Source of the DNA: Ginglymostoma cirratum
Taxonomy: Eukaryota
Direction of reading: 5' to 3'
Length of the DNA stretch: 64,000 nucleotides
NCBI GenBank assembly: GCA_024137785.1
Contig: JAHRHZ010000144.1
Span: 51,482,801-51,546,800, forward strand
Position numbers and translations under genes: made by a program. The notes beneath the pieces were generated by a model that was given only the letters and a program-made list of their open reading frames with translations, searched no databases and was not told the origin of the DNA. Position 1 is the first letter of the stretch. Each line of letters begins with the position of its first letter. Below are positions 12,259 to 28,622 of this stretch, piece by piece.

Positions 12259-14709
12259 TAAAACCTTTTGGGACTCAGAGAGACTGGATCACAATAGAGG
12301 ACGGCATATTATTATGGAAAGCAAGTGTGATTGTCCCAAGCAAAGATTGCCACCAGATATTGACTGAACTCCACCAGGGTCATGCAGGGGTTTCCAAAAT
12401 GACAAACTTGGTGAAAAGTTATGCCTGGCGGCCATGATTGGATGCCAACATAACCCCATTGGTGGGGCAGTGCCCAGGGTGCCAACAAGGATAAAAAGTA
12501 CAACCAGCAGCTCACCCACATTTGTGGGTATGGCCAGGTAAACCCTGGACTCGGTTACACATTGACTATGCAGGTCCTTTCATGGGCTGAATGTTCTTAA
12601 TCATTGTTGACGCTTGCTCAAAGAGGTCAGACATACAGAGAGATCATTTGTCATACACAGGGATGACAATAGAAAAACTGCATGCATCTTTTGCAATACA
12701 CAGACTCAGGAAGCATTGGTCACAGATAGCAAGCCATTGTTTACCAGCAGGGAACTTGAGAATTTCCAAAAGTTGAATAGTATTTATCATATTAGGACAG
12801 CTCCTTACCATCCATCATCGAATGGCCTGGCAGAAAGAGCAGTTCAAACTTTGAAGGCAAGCTTTTTCTTTAAGCCTACAGTTTCACGAGATAACAAACT
12901 GTCCTGGTTCCTATTTGATTATAGGACTGCTCCTCATGCAACTACAGGGATAGCTGCAACATAGTCGCTAATGGGGAGAAGACTCTGCACCAGGTTAAAT
13001 CTGATCTTCCTGGACCAAAGGGGAGGGTGAAATAGCATCAAGAATGTCAATGCTGGGCAAAAGACTCCATAAAGTGAGAGAGACAGTGTACTTCAGGGGA
13101 AGAGATTTGGTGTAGGAACCATGAGAATGGCCCTGCATAGCTAAGGGGCATGGTCGACATGAAGTCAGGTCCAGTGATTTATGAAATTTGGGTTGCTGAG
13201 CTGGTCCTGAACAAGCATGTGGACCACATGAAAGCTGCAAACTTGCAAACGGTGTGGAAGCAAAATGTGCCCGGCTCCTTGACTGCCTTTCCGACTGTTC
13301 TGGAACTCATGGATTCTCCCTCTCTGTCAAACATTGAAGATACCTTGAAATCTGCGGTGGACACAGCAAGTGTCGCCACCTCGCTGCCTTTGCCACCTAA
13401 AGAGAGAAATGAATTTCTTTTGAGATGCAAGAGGCGAGCTACTGTGCATTACATGCTGCCTGTATCAGAGGCAGAGTTGGAGGAATCTAACCCAGTGCTA
13501 AACTGCCCCAGGAGAAGCTACTAAATAAAAGAACTGGCCTATCTCCCTGGGCTCAGAGGGGGATTGATGTAGTGATTGTAACAAGGTTAGAGAGGTGGAC
13601 TTCATAGAATATGAGTTCCCTGATTGGACTGTTAAATCGGGCCAATCAGGGAGCCTTGGCTGATGTAACTCCAAAATACCACCAATCTGGTTAGATAAGT
13701 ACTGTTTGTTAGAATAAGATTATCTATTGATACAAAACAGCTCATATTTTCTATTGTCATTCTTAGGATTAAAGGCATTAAATGTAAGCTGTTGGATACC
13801 AATACGGAAAAAAAAATCAGTGTTTAATTTAAAGTTTCTCCCTCTATCAATACATTCAAATCTCAATGTAATTTCAAGCGAACTGATCCTTACTTGAGGT
13901 GTGAGAGCAGAAATGTAAAGCAGCAAGTGGCTAGCTAGCATGGTAATCCTACATTTTGACTTCCAGGCTAGATTTCTCTCTCATACCTACCTCCTGCAGC
14001 AACAACTTACTGAACAATAGACCAGCATGAGACTTTAGATTGCAGAAGACATTAAGGCAAATAGAGTTATAGAGTCATACAGCAGGGTAGCATGATAATT
14101 GCTGAACTCCTGGATATCCAAATTTCACACAATTTAGCACAAAATCACAGAATTCAAATCTTTAAAGATTCTGAGTGTTCCCATATTGTCAATAAAGGAA
14201 ATAGAAATTGAAAATCAAGCTTCGTCAGTCAGTGGCCCAGGTACTATGTTCAACTTTACATGACATATTATTATTCTGTAGTTCTCACAAACAGTGACCT
14301 GGATTTCTACCAGAATAGAACAATACCAAGATTAAACCCAAACCAATATTAAGTAGTTTTATTTATTTAAAAATTCAAGACCAATGTAATCTTCTAAACA
14401 AAATTCTAAATTAAGCGCAGTTGGACTTGGTGCATGAGACCACAACTTTGACAACAGAATGTTCAAAAAATGTGAATAATAACTTCTAATATAAAACGGA
14501 TTTGAGATTATCTTCTTAAAGATTATAATTTTTATTAAGTAACTGTATTGACTCCTTTATGTAATTAATTTGTAAAACTACTCAGAATACATTTCCTTTA
14601 CAGGATTAAATCTAGCTTGCATTTCATGCTGGAGGCAGGTGAACAATGGCAGTGACTCCTTGTCTTTATTTTTGTTCACGTCAGTCATGGGCATCACTGG
14701 CTGGTCAAT

Positions 14710-16620
14710 TCAGTTTGGATTCATTAAATCTTGGCTCCGACTGTGGGAGCATAGAGTCATAGTTAGTTTCTGGATGAGTTCCTTCTTCCAGTGGATGGAT
14801 TTACCCATGAGGACAGTGAAGTAGATCAAAGTAAACAGGATGACTAACATAGTCAGGTGCGATTGGAGATGTACGCATGGTTGTATCTGCATGTTTGAGC
14901 CCGAGTCTCAGAAGCCATCCCATCAATTAAACACTTTGATTTCCCTAATACCCTTTTGAACTTGCTCTGTCTGCTGAATAAAGGTAGTAAGAACTTTGTG
15001 TGCATTTGTCAATCGTGTTTGGACCTGCTGTGATTTTTCGGGTAGGAATTAAATATCGATATCTTACTTCTCCCAAGAATCCTTTAAAATTTGTTTGAGT
15101 TCGTCATTGACATTGACAAAGATCTCATTTCTCCTGTGGACATCTGTGAGTTTAATTTAGCCTACCCTGGCCAATATGTGCGGCCTAATACAAAACGTGG
15201 TGCTTTTGATGTTGCATGTGAAGGCCCCAAAGGAGCACGCAATGACTTCTTTTGTCGGCTGGCATTTTTCCAGAGTGCTACCCACAAGGCTATTCTTTTT
15301 CTCAACAGCGTACAGAGAATGCTGTCATATTCTAACAATACTCCCTCTCAGATAATGCTGACATTTTTCACCTCAAAGACATGTAATCCATTTTGATTTG
15401 GTGTTAATTGGGATCTTCAGTAGCATCCCCATGGCCTTTCCTGACTGAGTAGATTGGGATTATATTCATTGGAATTCAGAAGATTGAGGAGGGATCTTAT
15501 AGAAACATACAAAATTATGAAGGGAATAGACAAGTTAGGAGTAGAGAGAATGTTCCCACTGGCAGGTGAAGCTAGGACAAGAGGGCATAGCCTCAAGATT
15601 AGAGGGAGCAGATTTAGGACTCAATTGAGAAGGAAGTTCTTCACCCAGAGGGTTGTTAATCGATGGAATTCCTTGGCCAGTGAAGTAGTTGACGCTACTT
15701 CAGTAAACGATTTTAAAGCTAAGGTAGATTTTTTTTGAACAATAAAGGAATTAAGGGATACGGTGAGAGCGCGGGTAAGTGGATCTGAGTCCACAAAAAG
15801 ATCAGCCATGATCTTATTGAATGGTGGAGCAGGCTCGAAGGGCCGGATGGCCTATTCCTGCTCCTAGTTCTTATGTTCATATGTTCTATGGCCCCATTAC
15901 AAACTTCATTGGACCAGACTTTGGTCAGCTGCCTTAATTGACAATTTGAAATATTGGGAAGTCTCTTCCAGGGGAACACTTGCTCTATCTGCTTGATACT
16001 GATCCAAGATAGGACCTCTCCTTCCCTCGCCTACTTGAGATTCTCCTTCAACTGCTTGGTGAACCACTAGCCATAGATGATGCGCAGGGTTTAATTCTGC
16101 TGCCGTTTTTTACCATCTGTGTTTCCCTGGATTTTGTTTATAGTCCTGGGGTGCCTTTCTAGCAATGTTGTCAAGTGCTTTTCTCCCTGATTTTCTTTGA
16201 TCCCCACCCTCAGCATCTTGTTGACTGCCCAGATTAATTTTATACAAGACCTACATAATTTGTTGTGTTAACAATCTGAGTTTATTATCCAAATTAGCCA
16301 AATTGAGGGTATTGACTGTGAACACTCTGCTACGTAAGCTGTTGCCAAATACTTTGACATGTCTCTTTCACTATGCCCCGCTGGCCTGGGTCTGGCCTCT
16401 CCCGTGTCAATCCCTGTTTTCTGTCCTAATAGCTGATGAGTCAAATACAAACATAATTTCTGAAGTTGGATAGGGCACACCTTTGCTGTTGTCATCCTGG
16501 AGACCTGGTCAAGGTTGTGTTTGTTATTAACCTTGCATAATATCTGATCAAGTTTAGATACCACCTCACCCCTCTCCACCTGTGAGGACATTTTCTAACT
16601 CTGTCTGATCTTGGCCTGTG
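14710..16620 (-). pseudogene. env-like class I fusion protein remnant
   Basis: GHSERDMSKYLATAYVA (decayed cleavage site and fusion peptide), heptad TVNTLNLANLDNKLRLLTQQI, IYG*WFTKQLKENLK*AREGEVLSWIS, GMLLKIPI, VFEVKNVSII, LVGSTLEKCQPTKEVIACSFGAF, TM SHLTMLVILFTLIYFTVLM. Split by a CR1 insertion. Confidence 0.65.
15445..15890 (+). mobile_element. Young CR1-group LINE 3' end inserted in env
   Basis: GLYSLEFRRLRRDLIETYKIMKG...TRGHSLKI...FFTQRVVNRWNSL; tail ttcttatgttcatatgttctatg. Confidence 0.92.
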
Positions 16621-16884
16621 CTAGTTCGAACTGCTCTAAAAATTTTAATTTATCAAATTCTCCCAATTCCCCATTGGTCAATCAAAATGGAGGGATTGGA
16701 AGCGTGTTTGTGTGTTGGCATTATCAGAAATCCAGATAATTAAAATTTAGATGACGAGATGAAAAATGGCCAAATGTCAAAAATGATGATGGTGGCTACC
16801 TATAACACTCTATGGCGCTGCAGCCCTGTATGACCAGGATGGGTTGGCAGGTTCGGTCGACAGTGGTAGCAGAGGTTTATGACA

Positions 16885-17013
16885 GAGATAAAAGGTACTG
16901 CAGATGCTGAGAATCCGAGATAACAAGGCATGGGGCTGGATGAACACAGCAGGCCAAGCAGCATCATAGGAGCAGGAAAACTTGACGTTTCGGGCCTAGA
17001 CCCTTCATCAGAA
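16885..17013 (-). mobile_element. Penelope-like terminal fragment (family A) with 12-bp TSD
   Basis: TSD aggtttatgaca at 16873-16884 and 17014-17025. Confidence 0.9.
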
Positions 17014-17014
17014 A
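16981..17014 (-). ncRNA. Minimal type I hammerhead ribozyme motif with intact core (family A)
   Basis: Reverse complement reads UUU-CUGAUGA-A-GGGU-CUAG-GCCC-GAAAC-GUC-AAG: both conserved boxes, a 4-bp helix II and a GUC triplet. Confidence 0.72.
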
Positions 17015-17519
17015 GGTTTATGACATTGTCTTTAAAATGACCAGGATGGATTAGTGGAGCATCAGGGTTGGGGTGTAATGCTGGGGACTTGCTCCTCCAA
17101 CACATCATGGTGAGATTGTTAGAATGACTGTCTTTTTCAAGGGGTTGTCTCCATCTCTGGGTTAGAGTGCCACAAAGGATGCTTTCTTGAGTGGGCTGTC
17201 TCTAACCATTCTTTTAGCATCCAGGCAGCTGTGCCTTGATGCCTGCTTCTTCTGGCCACAATTGGTGGGACCAGCTATGGTTCAGTTCCAGAGGCTAAGC
17301 CTTAGGAGGGACAGTGTCCATGGCTGGTCCAGAATCTTGGCATGGATCAGTAACTGGGGCTGGTCCTGGATTGGGATTGGGATCAGGGATTTTGTTGGGG
17401 CTCAATCAATAACTGTTCTGGGGTCTGCTTCAGGACTTGGGTTTGGGTACACTTTCCCCAGTTCACCTAGAACAACATGAAGTTGGTGGCTGTTGCTTTG
17501 GGCTCTGTAGGCCTTTAAC

Positions 17520-20370
17520 TAATTAATATGGTTCCACCCAGTTTTTCCTGTATCTTGCAAAATTCTGTGCACGGAAGGGTTGGCCTTGTATGACCTCATA
17601 TTCTACAAGGTTCACCTTCCCATCAAGGTATGCCCTGCTCCGCTTTTTCCTTTCTGTCATTCTGAAGGCTGTTGCTGTGTGTACAGCCTGGACTTTCTCG
17701 CATAGAATTTTCACACTTTTCTTATGGCAGAGGTCTTCAACCTCAGGCTCTCCCAAATCCAGTCCTATTAAGAGTTCATTACCTATAATGGGGTGTTCTA
17801 TTATTTGTATGTGGGGTCGAATCCAGTTGAACAGGAAGATGAGTTCCTTATCAGCACGAAGACAAAGGGTAAAACTAGGTCACAGGTTGAGCTGTTTTAT
17901 TGGACAACTTTTCACAGTACCCCTTTGAGGATGCAATTCATCCTGTCTACAATCCTACTGGATTGAGGATGGTGGGTGATGTGGAATTTAGGCTGACACC
18001 AAATATATTCATCACTATACTACAGGGAAGACACCACTTGGGAACATGCTGAATTAAGATGACTGCTGCAGCTTTCGGGGTGTTTATTTGAGTGTGGAAT
18101 GCCTCCATCCATTTGCTAACAATATCCAATGATCAGAATATACTTTTATTCTCCTTTACAGAGTGGTAGGGGGCTGTCATAGTCTATTTGAAGGACAGCC
18201 CACAGTCGTGCTACCAACCTAATATACCTTAACTGTCCTTTATTGGAAAACTTGACTGGATTATTCTGGGCACAGATGAAACAATTCTTGACATAATGTT
18301 TTGTGTCTTTTCCCATTCCTGGCCACCAACACAATCCCTTAACTCTGTCAATCATGGTTTCTGTTTCTTGATGATCCTGGACATCATGGCTTTGAGAAAT
18401 CATTTGATTTTGTTTGTCGACTGGTAACACATACTGTCCATTATTAAGAACACAACTGTCCTTAGTACTTAACTTGTCCTCCCATTTGCTGTATGATGTG
18501 GGGATTGTTCCTTCCTGTATTTACCTTAACTCAGCATTGCTGGTCTGAGCCTGTACCAGGACTTTGATCTATGTTTGGCTCACAGCAACGGTGTCTATTT
18601 ATTCAGGAATGGGGTCTCCTTTGTAGTCAACTTGCTTGGCCAATTCATCTGCTGTTTTGTTCCCAGCTAGGGAAGTTCACTGGTGGGCTTTCACCTTAAT
18701 GATGCTGTATTTGTGGTCTTGAGCAGTTTGGACAATAAATTTGAGCAGTGGTGCAGATGGTAATGGTTTCCTGCCTGCCAAGATGAATCCCCTAGCTTCC
18801 CACAGTGGCAGGAAGTCAGTTAAACTGTTGCGGATATACACATTCTCCGAGTATTTGTTGGCTGGGGATGGGGAGGGATTTTTTTTTCTGACAATGTCGG
18901 CTCCAGCTGCTAGCTTGGCAGCCTGAGTGCTCACTTTGTTGGGGGGCTTCAGTGATAATTCTGTTCAGTGTCTGCCTCCGTGGTTCTATATATATACATA
19001 CCCTGCCTTTCAGTGTCCATCATTCACTGTAGGGGATGATTTATGAATATTCTTGTGGGGGGTGTCTCTCTTCTGCTCCCCAGGCCAGCTTGAGTCTTCC
19101 ACTGTTTGTTTTGGCACAAATGATACCTTCGGGACATTTGTTGCTGATACCTGACACTCATAGGGTTCTCTTCCATGACTTAAAGTATCGTCAAGGGAGC
19201 TGGGTGCTTTGGTTTGCTGGAACATAATGTTGTGAAGCTGTGAATGCAGACTCCAGTGCACTGTGTGGTTTTGGCTGACCGTACCATCTTTAACACTGCC
19301 ATCCAGTCAAAGTTGAATGGGGCTGTGCTCCATCAGAATGGATAGAGGGTTCAGGCCAATAACGTAGGCAAAATGTTGTAGTGCTGTGAATGTGGCTAGC
19401 AAGAGCTTCTAACACGTAAAGAAGTCCTGCTTTACTGTTGAAAGAATTCGGGAGACAAAGACAAATGGTCAGAGTTTATTGCATCATTCTTGGACAAATA
19501 CAGCTGCCAGTATGGATCCGTGGCTTCATGTTGCAAGGCAAAGGGAGGTTTTGGGTTGGGTACCTGCAATGTGAGGGCCTATATTAGGCCTGTTTAAATT
19601 CAACAACAGCATCTGTGTTCTGTTCAGTACATTCCCGAGAGGTAGACCTTTTAAAGAAATCGGAGAATGGGGTGACTTCATTGGTGAAACGAACAATGTG
19701 GTACCACTAAGTTCAGAAAAAAAGGCAACAGGCTCATGTCTCTTAGAAGGAGCAAACAGGTGATGGCCTTGATGCACTTCCCCTGTATTTCACATTTTCC
19801 CTGAGCTATCACAGACCTCAAGTATGAAATCTGGGACCTCATTATTTGTGTCTTCTTGGGGTTAACTTTTAGTTCTAGGATAGTGAGGAGGGCTACCAGT
19901 TCCTTTAAGAGTATTAAATGTCCAACCCTTGTCTCCTGTGCAGAAGGAGATTATCCACATAATATTAGCAAGCAATCTGGTTGTTAAAAACCTCTCACTG
20001 GACTGTGATGAAATGTTGACAAAAAATTATGAAACCCTGGGGAAAACAGGGTTTTCTGGCCCTGAACTCACAAGGTGATTTTATATTGGCAGTGTCAGCG
20101 AAGGAGCATGGACCAAAATCCATTACTAAAATCCACTAAATTGAAATATTTTGCCTGCAGGGCCCATCTAATCACAGTAGCCTGCCCGCTACTGTGTGCA
20201 TTGAGATTGGGGTGGTCTTATTTAGTTCTCTATAATCAATATTGAACCACCAAGAGCCATACAGTTTCTTAACCAGCCATATCTGCGCGTTATCAGTAGA
20301 TGCTACAGGAGCATAGAACACCTTGCTTTACCGAGCCACTAATGACCTTGACCACCTCCTCCTCTGCTTG
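17520..20370 (-). pseudogene. pol remnant: RT - tether RNase H - RNase H - integrase
   Basis: RT KQGVL..NAQIWLVKK..IDYRELNK and YVDNLL. Tether PFVFVSRIL..LLATFTALQHFAY. RNase H STQAAKLAA..NSLTDFLPLWEARGF..KVKAHQ..GNKTADELAK. IN SHD..H..WWPGMGKD..CFIC, LQIDY, DIVSKWMEAF, HHPQSS. Confidence 0.85.
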
Positions 20371-20540
20371 ATAAAAACCGAAAGAACTGCGGATGCTGTA
20401 AATCAGGAACAAAAACAGAAGTTGCTGGAAAAGCTCAGCAGGTCTGGCAGCATCTGTGAAGAAAAATTCAGAGTTAACGTTTTGGGTCCAGTGAACTTTC
20501 TCATGAGGAAGGGTCACTGGACCCGAAACGGTAACTCTGC
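20371..20540. mobile_element. Penelope-like terminal repeat (family C), inverted pair, in pol
   Basis: cagagttaacgttttgggtccagtgaac / ggtcactggacccgaaacggtaactctg mirror each other; flanks ctctgc(t/a)tg. Confidence 0.8.
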
Positions 20541-20564
20541 ATGTCAGCAAAGTCCAATATACGT

Positions 20565-21191
20565 CATTATGGACTAGACCAAAGCCCCACAAAATTGTAT
20601 CGAGGAGGAAGCATAGGACCATAATTTTTTTATTTCTTTAAAGGTGCTGTGTTCTAGATTTGTTTCACATTTTATTTTCACAACACAGTTAAAATACAAA
20701 CAGAAAAGAGGAATTGGTGTAACTTTAACTCTGTTGAAATACTTAATAAAATAATATTTCTTTTTAACTGCTAATCATCAACTGTTCCAATATAGCAGCA
20801 TTCCAGAAACACACCCTTGGCAAAGGCAAATTCAGCAATATAGATTTCCCACACATGCTATCTCCTCACCAGTCCAGGAGACAGGAACAGCAAAAGAAAC
20901 AATCTAGCAGCAGAGAGAGAATCAAGCATTTTGCCGCAGCAGAGAGAGCTGTATCTGTCAGCTTCAACAGCTTTAACAACCAACTCCAAATCCCAACTGA
21001 AAGCAAGAAAGTATAAACCTGACTCCACCCACTCAGCCTTCTTTTGTCTAATTTAATAAAAGAAAACAATCTGGGATATCAAAGCTGTTTATCCACTGTT
21101 TCTGAAGCAGACATGTTGGTACCATGGTGCCAACACCCCTCTTCAAGAGAAACGGGACAGCACATCTCTTAAAAGGCACAGTATCATCACA
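20565..21191 (-). mobile_element. Probable solo LTR of an unrelated element
   Basis: Minus strand starts TGTGATGATAC and ends ...ggtctagtccataa with AATAAA near the end; it interrupts the retroelement's coding frame. Confidence 0.55.
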
Positions 21192-21254
21192 AAGTCACCA
21201 ACAACTCCTATGAACACAAGCACCTGGAAAATGTAGTTGGGTGTTCTCCCTTAC

Positions 21255-24200
21255 ATAGAACACAGAAGATAGAACATAGAGCATAGAGCATAGAACATAG
21301 AACTCTACAGCACAGTACAGGCCCTACGTCCCACGATGTTGTGCCGACCTCTTATCCTACTAAGATTAATCTACCCTGCATACCCTACATTTTACTGTCC
21401 TCCATGTGCCTATCTAAGAACCGCTTAAAATTCTCTAAAGTATCTGACTCCACTACCACTGCCGGCAGTGCATTCCACATGCCCACCACTCTGTGTGTGA
21501 AGAATCTACCTCTGACATCTCCCCTATACCTTCCTCCAATCACTTTAAAATTATGCCCCCTCGTAATACTCATTTCCACCCTGGGAAAAAGTCTCTGACT
21601 ATCCGCTCTATCCATGCCTCTCATCATCTTGTAAATCTCTATCAAGTCACCTCTCATCCTTCTTCGCTCCAATGAAAAAAGCCCCAGCTCCCTCAACCTT
21701 TCCTCATAAGATCTGCCCTCTAGTCCAGGCAGCATCCTGGTAAATCTCCTTTGTACCATCTCTAAAGCTTCCACATCTTTCCTGTAATGAGGTGACCAGA
21801 ACTGAACACAATATTCCAAGTGTGGTCTAACCAGAGTTTTATAGAGCTGCAGCATAATCTCACAGCTTTTAAACTCAATTCCCCTCCCGATGAAAGCCAA
21901 CACACCATACGCCTTCTTTACAACCCTATCAACTTGGGTCGCAACTTTAAGTGATCTATGGACATGGACCCCAAGATCCCTCTGTTCCTCCACACTGCCG
22001 AGAATCCTGCCATTAACCCTATATTCTCCATTCAAATTCGACCTTCCAAAATGAATCACTTCACATTTGTCTGGGTTGAATTCCATCTGCCACTTCTTTG
22101 CCCAGCTCTGCATCCTGTCAATGTCCTGTTGTAACCTACGACAGCTCTCCATGCTGTCCATAACTCCACCAACCTTTGTGTCATTACTAACCCACACTTC
22201 CACTTCTTCATCCAAGTCATTTATAAAGATCACAAAGAGCAGAGGTCCCAGAACAGATCCCTGCGGCACACCACTGGTCACTGAGCTCCAGGCTTCCATC
22301 TACTGCCACTCTCTGTCTTCTATTGGACAGCGAGTTTTGTATCCAGACAGCCAAATTTCCCTGAATCCCATGCCTCCTTACTTTCTGAATGAGCCTACCA
22401 TGTGGAACCTTATTGAATGCCTTGCTAAAATCCATATACTCCACATCCACTGCTTTGCCTTCATCGATGTGTTTTGTCACATCCCCAAAGAATTCAGCAA
22501 GACTTGTGAGGCATTACCTGCTCCTCACAAAGCCATGCTGATTATTTTTAATCAAACTGCGCTTTTCTAAATAATCATAAATACTGTCTCTCAGAATCCT
22601 CTCCAATAATTTTCCCACCACAGAAGTAAGACTGACTGGTCTGTAATTTCCAGGATTATCCCTTTTCCCTTTCTTGAACAAGGGAATGACATTTGCCACA
22701 CTCCAATCTTCTGGCACTACTCCAGTGGACAGTGAGGATGCAAAGATCAATGCCAAAGGGGCAGCAATCTCTTCCTTTGCTTCCCGTAGTAACCTTGGTT
22801 ATATCCTGTCTGGCCCAGGGGACTTATCTATCCCTCATGTTTTTCAAGATTTCTAGCACATCCTCCTTCCTAACAACAACCTGTTCGAGCATATCTGCCT
22901 GTTTCATACTGTTCTCACAAACAACAAGGTCCCTCTCACTGGTGAATACTGAAGCAAAGTTTTCATTAAGGACCTCCCCTACCTCCTCCTGTTCCATGCA
23001 CAAGTTCCCTCCACTATCCCTGATTGGGCCTACCCTCACTCTGGCCATCCTCTTGTTCCTCACATAAGTATAGAAAGCCTTGGGGTTTTCCTTGATCCTA
23101 CCTGCCAAGGCTTTCTCATACCCCTTTCTAGCTCTCCTAAGTCCATTCTTCAGTTCCTTCCTGGCTACCTTGTAGACCTCTAGAGGCCTGTCCAGTCCTT
23201 GCTTCCTCAACCTTAAGTAAGCTTCATTCTTCCTCTTGACTAGATGTTCAACATATCTTGTCATCCAAGGTTCCTTCACCTTACTATCCTTTTGTTGCCT
23301 CAGTGGGACAAATATATCCAGTACTTGTAGCAACTGCTCCCTAAACAGCCTCTACAATTCTATCATGCATTTCCCTGAGAACATTTGATCCCAATTGGTG
23401 CTTCGTAGTTCTTGCCTAATAGCATTGTAATTCCCCCTTCCCCAATTAAATACTTTCCCATACCGTCCGCTCCTATCCCTCTCCATGACTATGGTAAAAG
23501 TCAGGGAGTTGTGATCACTATCACCGAAATGCTCTCCCACCGAGAGTTCTGACACCTGACCTGGTTCATTGCCAAGCACCAAATCCAATATGGCCTCCCC
23601 TCTAGTCGGCCTATCTACATATTGAGTCAGAAATCCTTCCTGGACACATCTGACAAAATCTGCTCCATCCAAACTATTTGCACTTAGGAGGTTCCAGTCT
23701 GTATTAGGGAAGTTGAAGTCACCCATGACGACAACCCTATTACTTTTGCACCTCTCCCAATCTGTTCCTCAGCATCTCTGTTACTACTGGGGGGTCTATA
23801 GAAAACTCCCAATAAAGTGACTGCTCCTTTCCTGTTTCTGACTTCCACCCATACTGACTCAATGGAGAAACCCTCCTCAGCAACCTCCCCTTCTGCAGCT
23901 GTGATACCATTCCTGATTAGGAATGCCACTCCCCCAACTCTTTTACCTCCCTCCTATTTCTTTTGAAACATCTATACCCTGGAACATCCAGCAACCATTC
24001 CTGCCCCTGTTATCCAAGTCTCTGTAATGGCCACAACATTGTAGTTCTAAATACTGATCCATGATCTAAGTTTGCCACCCTTACTCCTGACACTTCTTGA
24101 ATTGAAGCAGACACACCTCAACCCATCGCACTGACTGCCACTCTGCCCGATCAACTGCTTATCCTTCCTCACAGACTCTCTGCTTGCTCTATCTGTCTAT

Positions 24201-25345
24201 ATACTGGCTACCCCATCCTCTGATCTGTGGCTCCTGTTCCCATCCCCCTCCTGAAGTTTAAACCCTCCAGAAGAGCTCTAGCAAGCCTCCCACCCAGGAT
24301 ATTGTTGCCCCTCCAGTTCAGGTGCAATCCATCCTTCCTGTACAGATCCCACCTTCCCCAGAAGGTATCCCAATGATTCACAAACCTGAAGCCCTCCGTC
24401 CGACACTAGCTCTGTAGCCACGTGTTCAGCTGCGCTCTCTCTCTGTTTCTCGCCTCGCTAGTCCATGGCACTGGTAGTAATCCTGAGATTACTACTCTAC
24501 TCGTCCTAGCTTTCAGCTTCCATCCTAACTCCCTATAATCACTTTTCAGGTCCTCATCCTTTTTCCTAGTTATGTGATTGGTATCGATGTGTACCACGAC
24601 TTCCGACTGCTTTCCCTCCCCCTTAAGAATCCTGTAGACTCAATCTGAGACATCCCTGACCCTGGCACCCAGGAGGCAACATACCATCCGGGAGTCTCGC
24701 TCAGTACCACAGAATCTCCTGTCTGCTCCCCTAATCAGTGAATCTCCTATCACTATCGGTCTCCTATTCTTCCCCCTTGTCTTCTGAACCACAGAGCCAG
24801 GCTTAGTGCCAGAGACCTGGCCGCCATGGCTTTCCCCTGCTAGGTTGTCCCCCACAACAGTATCCAAAGCGATATACTTATTATTGAGGGGAACGGCTAC
24901 AGGTGATCCCTGCACTGTCTGCCTATTCTCTTTCCCCGTCCTGACAGTCACCCAGCTACCTTTGTTCTATACCTTGGGTGTGACCACCTCCCTGTAAATC
25001 CTCTCTATCACCCCCTCAGCCTCCCAAATGATCTGGAGTTCATCCAGCTCCAGCTCCAGTTCCCTAACACTGTCTGTGAGGAGCTGGAGTTGGGTGCACT
25101 TCTCGCAGGTGAAGTCATCCCACATTCTACAAGAGGAGCATGCAACTGCTCCTAGCTTCCATTACCTCTACTCTAGATTTCCAGAAGAATAAAGAAAAAT
25201 AAACCTTACCTTACCAACCCTTTTTTTTGGTTAGAGGAGGAGGATGGGTGGGAGACACTACATGTGTAGTGTTTCGGGTTTAGCCAATGCCCGAATATAT
25301 TAGTTCACTTCCCTGCTCGTGCTCTCAGCACTCCCAACGCTGAAC
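21255..25345 (-). mobile_element. Near full-length CR1 LINE (ORF1 zinc finger + SGNH esterase; ORF2 EN + RT)
   Basis: ORF1 CSSC..CEKC, IVIGDSLIRG, VVISGLLPVP. EN GVFYRPP, MGDFNFP, SDHN. RT GNYRPVSLTS, DFSKAF, GVPQGSVLGPLLF. (ttctatg)n tail; 4-nt TSD ttac. Several frameshifts. Confidence 0.96.
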
Positions 25346-26420
25346 ACAAATTACCCTACCTACATTTATTTAATGCCTCCATGGGGTCTCTCCTATTGTA
25401 TCTTATAGCAGCGAGGATTAACTTTTTCGTGTCCTGCCGCTCCGTTATCCCACATTCTGAGGATTGGGTAAGGCAGAATGAATCACGGGGCTCAGGTACA
25501 TGAACATTAATTTTACCTCCTTGACAGTGTCGAGTGTGCGGAGAACCCTTGATGGGTGAGTGCTTTCAAAAACCATTCAGGGTCAGCTGTGGGCTCAAAT
25601 ATGGAGATCATTTTTGCTATCCCCACCAATTACACCATTGTAAATGGACTTGTATAAGTAATTGGATTATTGTTCTGGCTGTCCTGATTGGTTGTGATCA
25701 ATGGATTTGTTGGGACGTTAGATGCCAGAAGGATGTATTCCCATCGGAAAGGGAGGTAGTGATCCCCATTCTTTGCTACTCTTGGCATATCTGCAGGCTT
25801 GTTTTTCCATTTCCTCCCAGTCTATCCCACAATCGCTGTCACCATCTGAATCTAATGTCCCAAATGAGCGTGGGAATTTAGGACTTCAATTTTTTAATCT
25901 TGCACTGGCATTTCAAATGGCTCACAGAACAAGGTCTGTTTTCTTTGCCTGCCTGGTGCATGACTCTGAATGTAACCTGTAGGTTTTTGCATTTCTCAGT
26001 CAGCTCATCCTCAGCTGTTTGAGCTGTGTACTGATCACTGACAGCGTGCTATGCCTCTGGCTCATTCCAGTGCACTGGTTCTGAAACTATCCCATGTGTT
26101 CCACTTTCACCTGCTTCTTCTGCTCCTGCTCTACTGTTTTGATGCTTACTTTTTCCAGTTCCTGCTTCACTTCCACCAACTCCTTATTTAGCCTCACATC
26201 CTCCCATTTTCTACTACTCAGCTGCTCACTGCAACTGGCTATTGCAATTATCCTGCTAAATTTTAAAACGTATTTTCCCTCAGTTTCCATATCACCTCCC
26301 CTAGCATTTCTGTCCTGTGGGTCCCAGTCCCAATATCTGCTCAATGTAATGGTTAACCTACCTGGGCCACTTCTTATTTAAGTACTTCCTTAGTACCTCT
26401 TCCAACTCTGAGCTCTGTGC
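25346..26420 (-). pseudogene. gag remnant of the env-bearing element (coiled coil + capsid-like)
   Basis: Coiled coil RLNKELVEVKQELEKVSIKTVEQEQKKQ, SHLKCQCKIKKLKS. KKLILAAIRYNRRDPMEALNKCR*G rejoins KGEHPTTF (21250) across the CR1 insertion. Confidence 0.6.
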
Positions 26421-28622
26421 TATTTTGTCAATTGTTTTCTTCTAATTTACTACTCTCTCTCTCTCTGTGTCCCATGGATCCCTGGCACTATATTGATCCT
26501 CAACTCTTTTCACTATCTCTTACCTCATAGGTCCCTGGCCCTGCTCTAGCTTCTCTGTATTCTCATGGGTCCTGTGTTTGGCTTCCTTGTCTTTGTTTCC
26601 TCTGGGGTCCCAACCTGGTACTAGCATATGCTTGATTTCCTTTTCCATGGGATCCCAACCCTGTACTAACACTGCTCTCTCAATCTCTCACCAGGGTTCA
26701 TTCAGGGCACAGGAGTTAAATGGAGACAAGGTCTGGCTCTTGCTAAATTTCCACCTCGTTGCACACTGCACTATGCTAGCTCTGAGCTCTGTCTTCCACA
26801 CATTACAAACACTTGGTTATGGCACAAACTGATCGTAAACCTTCACCCCCTTTCACCCACTTGAATCATGACCAGCATGTTGGGCAGCTGACCTCTTACA
26901 CTCAGGCTCATGCTGGGTGTCAGGCACAAGAAAGACACCATGCAGAAGTAAGGCAAAACATATAAGGAAATGCCTTAGGTTTCCAAAATAAATCGTTTAG
27001 GTGCTCATTTTGTTGTTTGTGTTATCGTGATGTTCTGTATACATTAAAAGTGAGTTATGGTGTCTACTTTGTTCCATTTACTCTGATTATTTAAAAGCTG
27101 GTGAATGGCATGAGTTCCATTGAGCAGGATCAAGTTGTGAAATTGATGGGTGGGTGCATGTCTGCAGGTATGAGATTTATTGTTAATGGGATTTGGGAGT
27201 TGTTTGTACAGGAATTGTGAGGAGAAGATTTTAATGCTACAAATATATTCACCAAGGGAGCCATACTTGGATGATGGTGTTGCTCAGTTCTCAGGCAGGC
27301 AGGTTTGTGGCTGTAGGCACCGAGCAGACCGTGAAAAGCTCTATCATCCACCAATTTCTACCATTGTTTGACACTCACTCTAATCCTCTCTATAGTGTCA
27401 TCTTTTACAGCTGTATCACACCACTGCTATCAAGGGCATGTTCGCTGAGATGTACTGAAGGGCATCTCCAGATCAGTCCAGGTAGTGGAACATCATTTTG
27501 AGAAAACCAATGCCTTGTTCTTTTGTTGACCTAGCAATAAATTGGCTCTGACTGGATTGTTCCTATGCCTCTGTAATAGTGTTTCTCCCTGACAATGTGA
27601 ACTGGATTGTGAAAGTATTCCTTCCAAACTAGATGCAAATTCAATCATTTTGTTGTGGCTGTTACCTAAGACTGCTTTATCTCTGAGGTCACTAATTAAT
27701 CCTTTCACAGTATAAATGTCAAGTTTAATATATCTTGCTCTCTGTTCAATTCCAAAACATGGTGACGTAAGAAAGCATGTCAAAAGCACTCAAGTCCTCA
27801 CCCAGGCTATTATTGTCAATCTGATTTTTCCAGTTTATATGTGAATTAAAGACATACATGATGATTGCTATCCCATCCTTTTATCACAACAACTCAATAT
27901 TTCTTCTCATATACTTTGTCTCACATTGTGATTATTATTAAGACCTGTAGACCATTGCTACTAGTGACCTCTTTCCCAGAATATTTGTCATCTCCATTCA
28001 AAGTGGTTCTACATTCTGATCTCCTAAACCAAGGTCATCATTGCCCAAATTCCATCCTTTACCAACTTTATATTTTAGTTCAGTGCCAAATACTCCTCAA
28101 TATTCACTTAGTGAACTTACAAATATGGGGGAAGTCATACTAAGCAAACAGATGCATTGGAGGCTGACAAATGTCCAGGTCTAGATGGGATGTCATCCTA
28201 AGGTCTTTGAAGAGATGAGCCAGTAGATGAATTGGTATTACTTTTCCAAAATTTCCTCAATTCAGGAAATATTCCATCTTACTGGAAAGCAGCAAATATC
28301 ACCCCTCTATTCAAGAAAGGAGGGAGCCAGAAAACAAGAAATTATAGGCCAGTTGGCTTGATGTCTGTTATGGGGAAGTAATTGAAATTGATCATTAAAG
28401 AGATGATAGCTTAGGAAAATTCAAGATAATCAGGAAGAGTCAGTGTGGTTTACTGAAAGGGAAATCATATTGAACGAACTCATTAGAGACCTTCGGAGGA
28501 ATATCATGAGCTGTGGATAAAAGGAGCCTGTAGGTGTACTGTACTTAGATTTCCAGGAGGCATTTGATAAGGTGCCACAGCAAAGTTATTGTGGAAAATA
28601 ACAGCTCAGGGTATTGAGGTAA

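Follow-up and report, generated by a model that had tools for sequence, protein, structure and literature searches.

A shark endogenous retrovirus family with a canonical-type reverse transcriptase and a probable fusion-protein-type envelope

The 64,000-nucleotide stretch of the shark Ginglymostoma cirratum analysed here (assembly GCA_024137785.1, contig JAHRHZ010000144.1, positions 51,482,801 to 51,546,800; hereafter the window) carries on its minus strand a decayed endogenous retrovirus (ERV), for which a preliminary description had suggested a lokiretrovirus-like identity. Our analysis indicates that the element is probably a dead provirus in truncated form and a member of a multi-copy family. 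The reverse transcriptase (RT) of this family groups with canonical retroviruses near snakehead retrovirus (SnRV), likely within clade Huo or class III, and its envelope protein (Env) is likely of the fusion (F) protein type, that is class Ib, and homologous to the Env of lokiretroviruses (Loki). Clade Huo comprises the SnRV- and ERV-L-related ERVs, according to the accessible text of two reports (Xu 2018, PMC6001957; PMC8922424). We read the family as a variant among SnRV-related ERVs, which are already known in chondrichthyans from CmiERV lineage I (CmiERV-I) of the elephant shark (Han 2015, PMC4422223). In this form, the alternative suggestion of a lineage that bears an envelope and stands apart from Loki is upheld.

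Six-frame translation revealed gag, a broken RT, the tether (a degenerate Ty3-type RNase H), a second RNase H, the integrase and env, in this order from 26921 to 14712, in an ERV copy split by five insertions (Table 1). Other copies are colinear with the window across these insertions, and the matching of sibling copies ends at 14712 and 26921, so that the limits proposed before (14700..26920) are correct. All motifs quoted in the preliminary description were located. A single frame (19528-18032, with 14 stops read as X) runs from the tether through the second RNase H to the integrase zinc finger, and the Pfam scores of tether, RNase H and integrase are far beyond chance. The RT piece matches RVT_1 with an E-value of 9e-4, the top match of the second RNase H in the Protein Data Bank (PDB) is the foamy-virus-type RNase H 2lsn (E 1.6e-5), and the intact relative P0008 matches the window from tether to integrase with an E-value of 2e-52 (tblastn). 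The gag remnant matches gag pieces of other copies (tblastn, E 7e-9), whereas the gag end and the protease are absent at the nested-insertion site, where siblings retain 0.8-1.6 kb. The env had been described as an open reading frame (ORF) ending in a transmembrane helix; the hydrophobic helix does stand at its end, but the gene lies in pieces in three frames and forms no single ORF. Its N-terminal extension is only partial, with about 545 nt of sibling sequence absent near 16480. The element is truncated at 14712, where siblings run on into a long terminal repeat (LTR) of ~0.8 kb. Both LTRs of the window copy are gone, and neither an LTR nor a target-site duplication was found for it. This copy is inert and gives no sign of a host function.

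The family is present in many copies. A search of the 4.36-Gb genome with the integrase piece returned 974 candidates, and all 150 that were scored proved to be matches, with stops in nearly all of them; a search with an RNase H relative returned 571 candidates (150 of 150 scored were matches). We sampled 40 ten-kb loci, consisting of the 20 best integrase matches outside the window and 20 strong RNase H matches. The env profile located env adjoining pol in 27 of these loci, a co-occurrence that had been set beforehand as a test of the element. The window pol differs from that of four siblings by Kimura two-parameter distances (K2P) of 0.32-0.34. Among ten copies measured with their flanks, four have LTR pairs (K2P 0.09, 0.11, 0.16 and 0.26). 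A polypurine tract lies 5' of the 3' LTR in two copies, and a 4-base target duplication was found in one copy and not in a second. Copies other than that of the window show the arrangement LTR-gag-pro-pol-env-LTR together with a primer site and a polypurine tract. We take the primer site that follows the 5' LTR in three stretches of the sister subfamily to be of the tRNA-His type, whereas that of CmiERV-I is presumably Ser-like. Among 61 stretches scanned, the His-type site was seen in these three; it is absent from the window, and no Ser-type site was seen in the window or the 40 loci.

The window's subfamily shares with six siblings an N-terminal env region of ~800 bases that finds no match in any of the seven sister-subfamily loci tested. 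The gag pieces gave no significant match to either SnRV gag or Loki gag. Beyond this genome, the annotations of Heterodontus francisci and Mustelus asterias include relatives of ~70% identity, in line with a shark host, and relatives with an intact pol were retrieved by a homolog search at 45-46% (P0005, P0008 and Xenopus P0006/P0007). It could be asked whether the env-like region is an unrelated or chance sequence and no fusion gene of the element, as single broken env copies have no match in Pfam, PDB or the Atlas. However, the region is colinear with pol in the 27 loci, where it lies between the integrase and the 3' LTR, and it possesses a basic site, a fusion-peptide-like stretch and a membrane helix; we regard this explanation as extremely improbable.

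Some annotated relatives and copies have features of their own. P0003 of Heterodontus francisci is a 207-residue open RNase H of the family annotated as a gene, which may be a young copy or a retained domain, and P0009, a Mustelus asterias gene model, has RT pieces of the family fused to a lipid-symporter-like protein and is probably a gene-model chimaera. P0007 of Xenopus tropicalis is an intact pol of the same group that bears the UniRef label "Gypsy retrotransposon integrase-like protein 1". One family copy has a short inversion within its RNase H (L038:4150-4317).

The RT places the family among canonical retroviruses. In a careful tree of 25 rows, including five family copies and computed under a mixture model, Gypsy branches first, then Loki, then a clade of all canonical retroviruses including the shark family (support 98/97). 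A quick tree of 58 rows, with 20 family copies (the window and the 19 loci in which 200 or more RT positions could be read), concurs on the position of the family within canonical retroviruses. The reference rows came from pattern scans and comprise L061, identified as SnRV by the agreement of its RT with the published SnRV row, L063 and L076 for Loki, and foamy, gamma, delta and epsilon viruses. The two Loki rows, both from metagenome contigs, are the only ones in the trees, and ERV-L, CmiERV, Odin and fish foamy-like ERV rows were left out. The labels of the foamy, gamma, delta and epsilon rows come from published rows or from genome length. The approximately unbiased (AU) test on RT rejected a grouping of the family with Loki (p 0.033). 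Moreover, the family RT lies outside the clades of Ty3/Gypsy, of epsilon viruses and clade Mu, and of foamy viruses and clade Tu, the foamy RT forming a separate clade (100/100). A placement inside Ty3/Gypsy, epsilon or foamy clades, which the preliminary description had named as a refutation, is not borne out.

Sequence motifs and pairwise scores agree with this placement. The RT of P0008 scores 204 bits with SnRV, 152-157 with Loki and 65-128 with Gypsy. The family RT has the motifs PQGF(H/R)NSP, QYVDD and KVNPKK; family-like motifs also occur in the SnRV row of the published RT alignment, whereas the Loki rows shown have (C/L/M/T)PFG. Similarly, the family RNase H shares its terminal KVKAH with SnRV and Xen-1, compared to (Y/F)(W/C)(K/R)KV(K/P)GH in the Loki rows shown. 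In the RNase H tree, the family forms a clade of its own (100/99) outside the Loki and foamy group, RNase H group I (95/95, with a long-branch warning). In PDB, foamy proteins are the top matches of RT, RNase H and integrase alike, in a comparison where SnRV and Loki gave no PDB rows.

The env of the better-preserved sister subfamily shows the order of an F-type protein most clearly. It starts with an N-terminal extension and a short strand-rich part, followed by a basic site, a glycine-rich hydrophobic peptide and a long heptad region, and then by a cysteine-rich domain, a second helix and a membrane anchor. We built an env profile (A2) from 30 pieces, 28 of which come from this subfamily. 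A2 matches the two Loki Envs with HH probabilities of 90.7 and 95.7%, and the C-terminal half of SnRV Env with 65% and with the cleavage sites aligned; in these comparisons SnRV Env matches the shark profile over 243-270 columns. All controls remained at or below 3%, namely four gamma, four delta and four foamy Envs, eight paramyxovirus F proteins, the env of metagenome contig L062, two reversed and 20 shuffled sequences; the foamy Envs reached at most 0.5%. Loki Env alone does not match SnRV Env (0.2%), compared to 90.5% over 270 columns for a merged shark and Loki profile, with ten shuffles at most at 1.2%. Both Loki Envs match the Pfam family Fusion_gly PF00523 (E 1.2e-5 and 2.2e-3), and Loki Env reaches 44-47% against a paramyxovirus F alignment. 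Tblastn links the window env to that of the sister subfamily (E 4e-6 and 2e-8), and a window-type piece outside A2 matches this profile at 67%. The shark env is thus likely F-type by a chain of matches, since the window pieces tie to the sister profile, A2 ties to Loki Env and Loki Env ties to PF00523; for the window copy this is two steps removed. The env does not show the marks of a gamma-type envelope: the immunosuppressive motif LQNRxxLD was seen in none of 18 loci scanned and TLV_coat in none of the 30 env pieces, while CX6CC matches in six-frame scans were scattered and uninformative.

Several results weigh against a position near SnRV or against an F-type Env. A clade of SnRV and the family was never recovered, and the base of the RT tree is a polytomy. 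In the RT+tether tree (LG+G4), the family clade (96/94) lies outside SnRV and L062, and all other canonical retroviruses are united apart from it (82/81). The AU test on RT+tether rejected neither family plus Loki (p 0.15) nor family plus SnRV (p 0.12), and the integrase tree joined the family with Loki and Gypsy (88/96). As for env, A2 had no significant match to the paramyxovirus F alignment (1.9%), and the merged shark and Loki profile reached 13%. The window-type env pieces alone gave at most 5% with Loki Env and at most 7% with F, and no family env piece had a Fusion_gly match in Pfam. The fusion-protein-type env of the preliminary description therefore stands as Loki- or F-like by profile comparison but not by direct matches to PF00523 or paramyxoviruses. 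A noisier, iterated automatic env profile that included out-of-frame text lost the Loki signal (2%); in that comparison four of ten foamy rows (407-464 residues) were probably not Env. AlphaFold models were also poor, with a mean confidence (pLDDT) of 49.6 for a broken sister-subfamily env and 40 for SnRV Env alone, and fold searches with both models returned only noise and generic helical bundles.

Two other placements of pol have to be weighed against these data. The family, P0008, P0005, the Xenopus element and probably CmiERV-I could form their own lineage that branched before all other canonical retroviruses and kept an ancestral Loki-like tether, integrase and Env, in which case "SnRV-related" would be a loose label. 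The RT+tether and integrase trees agree with this, as do the scores of P0008, which are higher with Loki than with SnRV for the tether (67-70 vs 28 bits) and the integrase (213-218 vs 123 bits), and an Env that is nearer to Loki than to SnRV. However, these groupings are moderately supported, under the simpler model; RT by itself leaves the branching order undecided and does not keep P0005 and the Xenopus row together with the family, and family plus SnRV was not rejected on the integrase either (p 0.13). Slowly evolving or ancestral common domains would also raise similarity without kinship, and sampling is sparse; we consider this early branching possible but doubtful. Alternatively, the element could belong to the lokiretroviruses proper and be their first chondrichthyan member, as its tether, integrase and Env are nearest to Loki among the named references and it carries a dual RNase H. 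The dual RNase H had been taken as a hallmark and is present in the window, but it is common to all retroviruses and to Odin, and so cannot point to Loki. The RT test and the RT and RNase H motifs speak against a lokiretrovirus, as does the failure of the family RNase H to join Loki and foamy. By RT, the defining marker, membership is not supported, and we judge it improbable. In agreement with the preliminary description, Loki was found in 0 of 6 chondrichthyan genomes in the accessible text of Wang and Han (2021, PMC7947760).

A canonical retrovirus near SnRV could also have acquired its env from a lokiretrovirus by recombination, and an F-type env would then be uninformative on ancestry. 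Env swaps are described as common in anamniote ERVs, and class III SnRV-related pol with gamma-type env occurs in anamniotes, in the accessible part of a preprint (bioRxiv 2021.11.23.469661). Moreover, the same pol group has a gamma-type env in CmiERV-I. However, the match of SnRV Env to the shark profile shows that this env type is not confined to the shark family, and the similarity between shark and Loki env is remote. We therefore hold such an acquisition to be rather unlikely, and retain a SnRV-related retrovirus with a homologous F-type Env as the preferred reading.

Several known systems are close to the family. Judged by eye from the accessible parts of PMC4422223, CmiERV-I resembles the shark family in the RT motifs TPACAPVV (as in P0005, P0007 and P0008), LDISNGFW and PQGFHNSP, in a similar tether and in a DW-x6-A-x2-Y gag motif, but differs in its gamma-type env with LQNRMALD and CX6CC. 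CmiERV scaffold 2, which combines the pol group of the shark family with a gamma-type env, suggests that envelopes were exchanged inside this group. Among the named references, SnRV gives the best RT match and shares the KVKAH-type RNase H, a coiled-coil gag and a homologous C-terminal half of Env; its tether and integrase are far apart from those of the family, with no supported joint clade, and its Env has about 620 residues before the last basic site, compared to about 350 in the window's subfamily. Lokiretroviruses, as far as the accessible text of PMC7947760 describes them, share gag-pol-env with LTRs, dual RNase H, a homologous Env and a similar tether and integrase, but differ in RT clade and in RT and RNase H motifs, and the shark Env has an extra N-terminal extension ahead of the part in common with Loki Env. 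Lokiretroviruses are also marked by an integrase related to CGIN1. According to the same text, Loki Env and the Envs of retroviruses are not similar overall, and Env could have originated in any of four scenarios. Canonical retroviruses generally carry a retroviral class I Env, according to the accessible part of a preprint (2023.10.26.564294), which announces its analysis of vertebrates for a later publication. Foamy Env has an F-like structure in the accessible text of Fernandez 2024 (PMC11468914); foamy viruses would share a class Ib Env with the shark family, but have a separate RT clade and no Env sequence similarity. Odin retrotransposons have a dual RNase H as well, but are described in the accessible text of PMC9040795 as env-less elements from sea anemones, whereas the shark family has env adjoining pol. 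We found no publication calling the Env of SnRV-related or shark ERVs Loki- or F-like in a search that left subscription journals and preprint supplements uncovered, so such a statement may be in print.

The pattern scans also brought up elements in metagenome contigs. L062 and L072 encode an RT of the LPQGY type, which joins SnRV in the RT+tether tree (93/94), and carry a gamma-type env (TLV_coat, E 1e-20). L063, L076 and L078 hold lokiretrovirus-like elements, L063 and L076 each with an in-frame stop between ORFs.

The features of the window element and its insertions are listed in Table 1. The large nested CR1 differs from another copy by a K2P of 0.115. The solo-LTR-like repeat next to it has 2935 candidate places in the genome, and all 40 that were scored match, at 72-78% identity. 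We also considered it as the LTR of the ERV family and rejected it, as it has no match in the 20 flanks of ten family copies. Beyond the 3' end of the ERV, another integrase remnant lies on the plus strand at 12611-13524 (Pfam rve_3, E 7e-5) and probably belongs to a separate, adjoining Gypsy-type element.

Table 1. Features of the ERV copy and of the sequences inserted into it (window coordinates; iE, independent E-value)
Feature	Position	Strand	Basis or remark
5' leader and gag remnant	25356..26921	-	colinear with L021, L025, L031 and L034 at 66-81% nucleotide identity
gag N-terminal coiled coil	near 26085-26290	-	
gag capsid-like part	25359-25720	-	gag 3' end lost
Nested CR1-type long interspersed nuclear element with endonuclease and RT, not part of the ERV	21256..25340 (5' limit approximate)	-	Exo_endo_phos_2 E 2e-9; RVT_1 E 2.5e-10
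Nested solo-LTR-like repeat of another family	20598..21255	-	TG start, AATAAA, CA end
Nested short high-copy repeat, probable Penelope-like end piece	20373..20540		repeat families D4, D13 and D14; skipped by siblings
RT, N-terminally truncated, with stops and frameshifts	19530..20372	-	PQGF near 20042; YVDN near 19961
Tether (degenerate Ty3-type RNase H)	19250..19513	-	Pfam RT_RNaseH E 1.7e-5; RT_RNaseH_2 E 4.6e-5
Second RNase H	18632..19027	-	Pfam RNase_H E 2.8e-9
Integrase: HHCC, broken catalytic core, C-terminal domain	17500..18470	-	Integrase_H2C2 E 3.1e-14
Nested short high-copy repeat, probable Penelope-like end piece	16885..17014		repeat family D1; skipped by siblings
env N-terminal part, including a heptad region	15913..16830	-	family env profile iE 4.9e-37; colinear with siblings
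env signal-like stretch	near 16800	-	
env cleavage-site and fusion-peptide region	near 16400-16340	-	
Nested CR1 3' fragment dividing env	15443..15913		translation; skipped by siblings
env C-terminal part: cysteine-rich domain, second heptad, transmembrane helix	14712..15443	-	family env profile iE 6e-19
env transmembrane helix	near 14860-14810	-	

Retroviruses copy their RNA by tRNA-primed reverse transcription, remove the RNA with RNase H and integrate the product into host DNA. We propose that the ancestor of the family was an enveloped retrovirus, primed by a tRNA (as the His-like site of the sister subfamily suggests) and at the polypurine tract, which would have entered the germ line by integration. 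Its Env would have been cut at the basic site to free the fusion peptide, as in Loki Env and paramyxovirus F, and the long heptad region, cysteine-rich domain, second heptad and membrane anchor that follow would be expected to support class Ib refolding. The family likely spread at least in part by reinfection, because env is retained in most copies. The window copy then lost both LTRs and the protease, took up five insertions and yields nothing today.

More tentatively, and in our view with a minority chance of being correct, the family may be the earliest branch of canonical retroviruses, retaining an ancestral tether, integrase and F-type Env. If its Env bridges the sequences of the Loki and SnRV Envs, an F-type envelope would already have been present in the ancestor that the two groups have in common, and gamma-type envelopes such as that of CmiERV-I would be later replacements. 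A shark ERV family with canonical RT and an Env matching both Loki Env and SnRV Env would link two envelope histories. Together with the F-like structure of foamy Env given in the accessible text of PMC11468914, the shark Env would favour placing an F-type Env at the base of the retroviruses, and the question of the origin of Env would become testable by sequence alone. Screens for env that use gamma- or beta-type Env as bait would not pick up elements of this kind.

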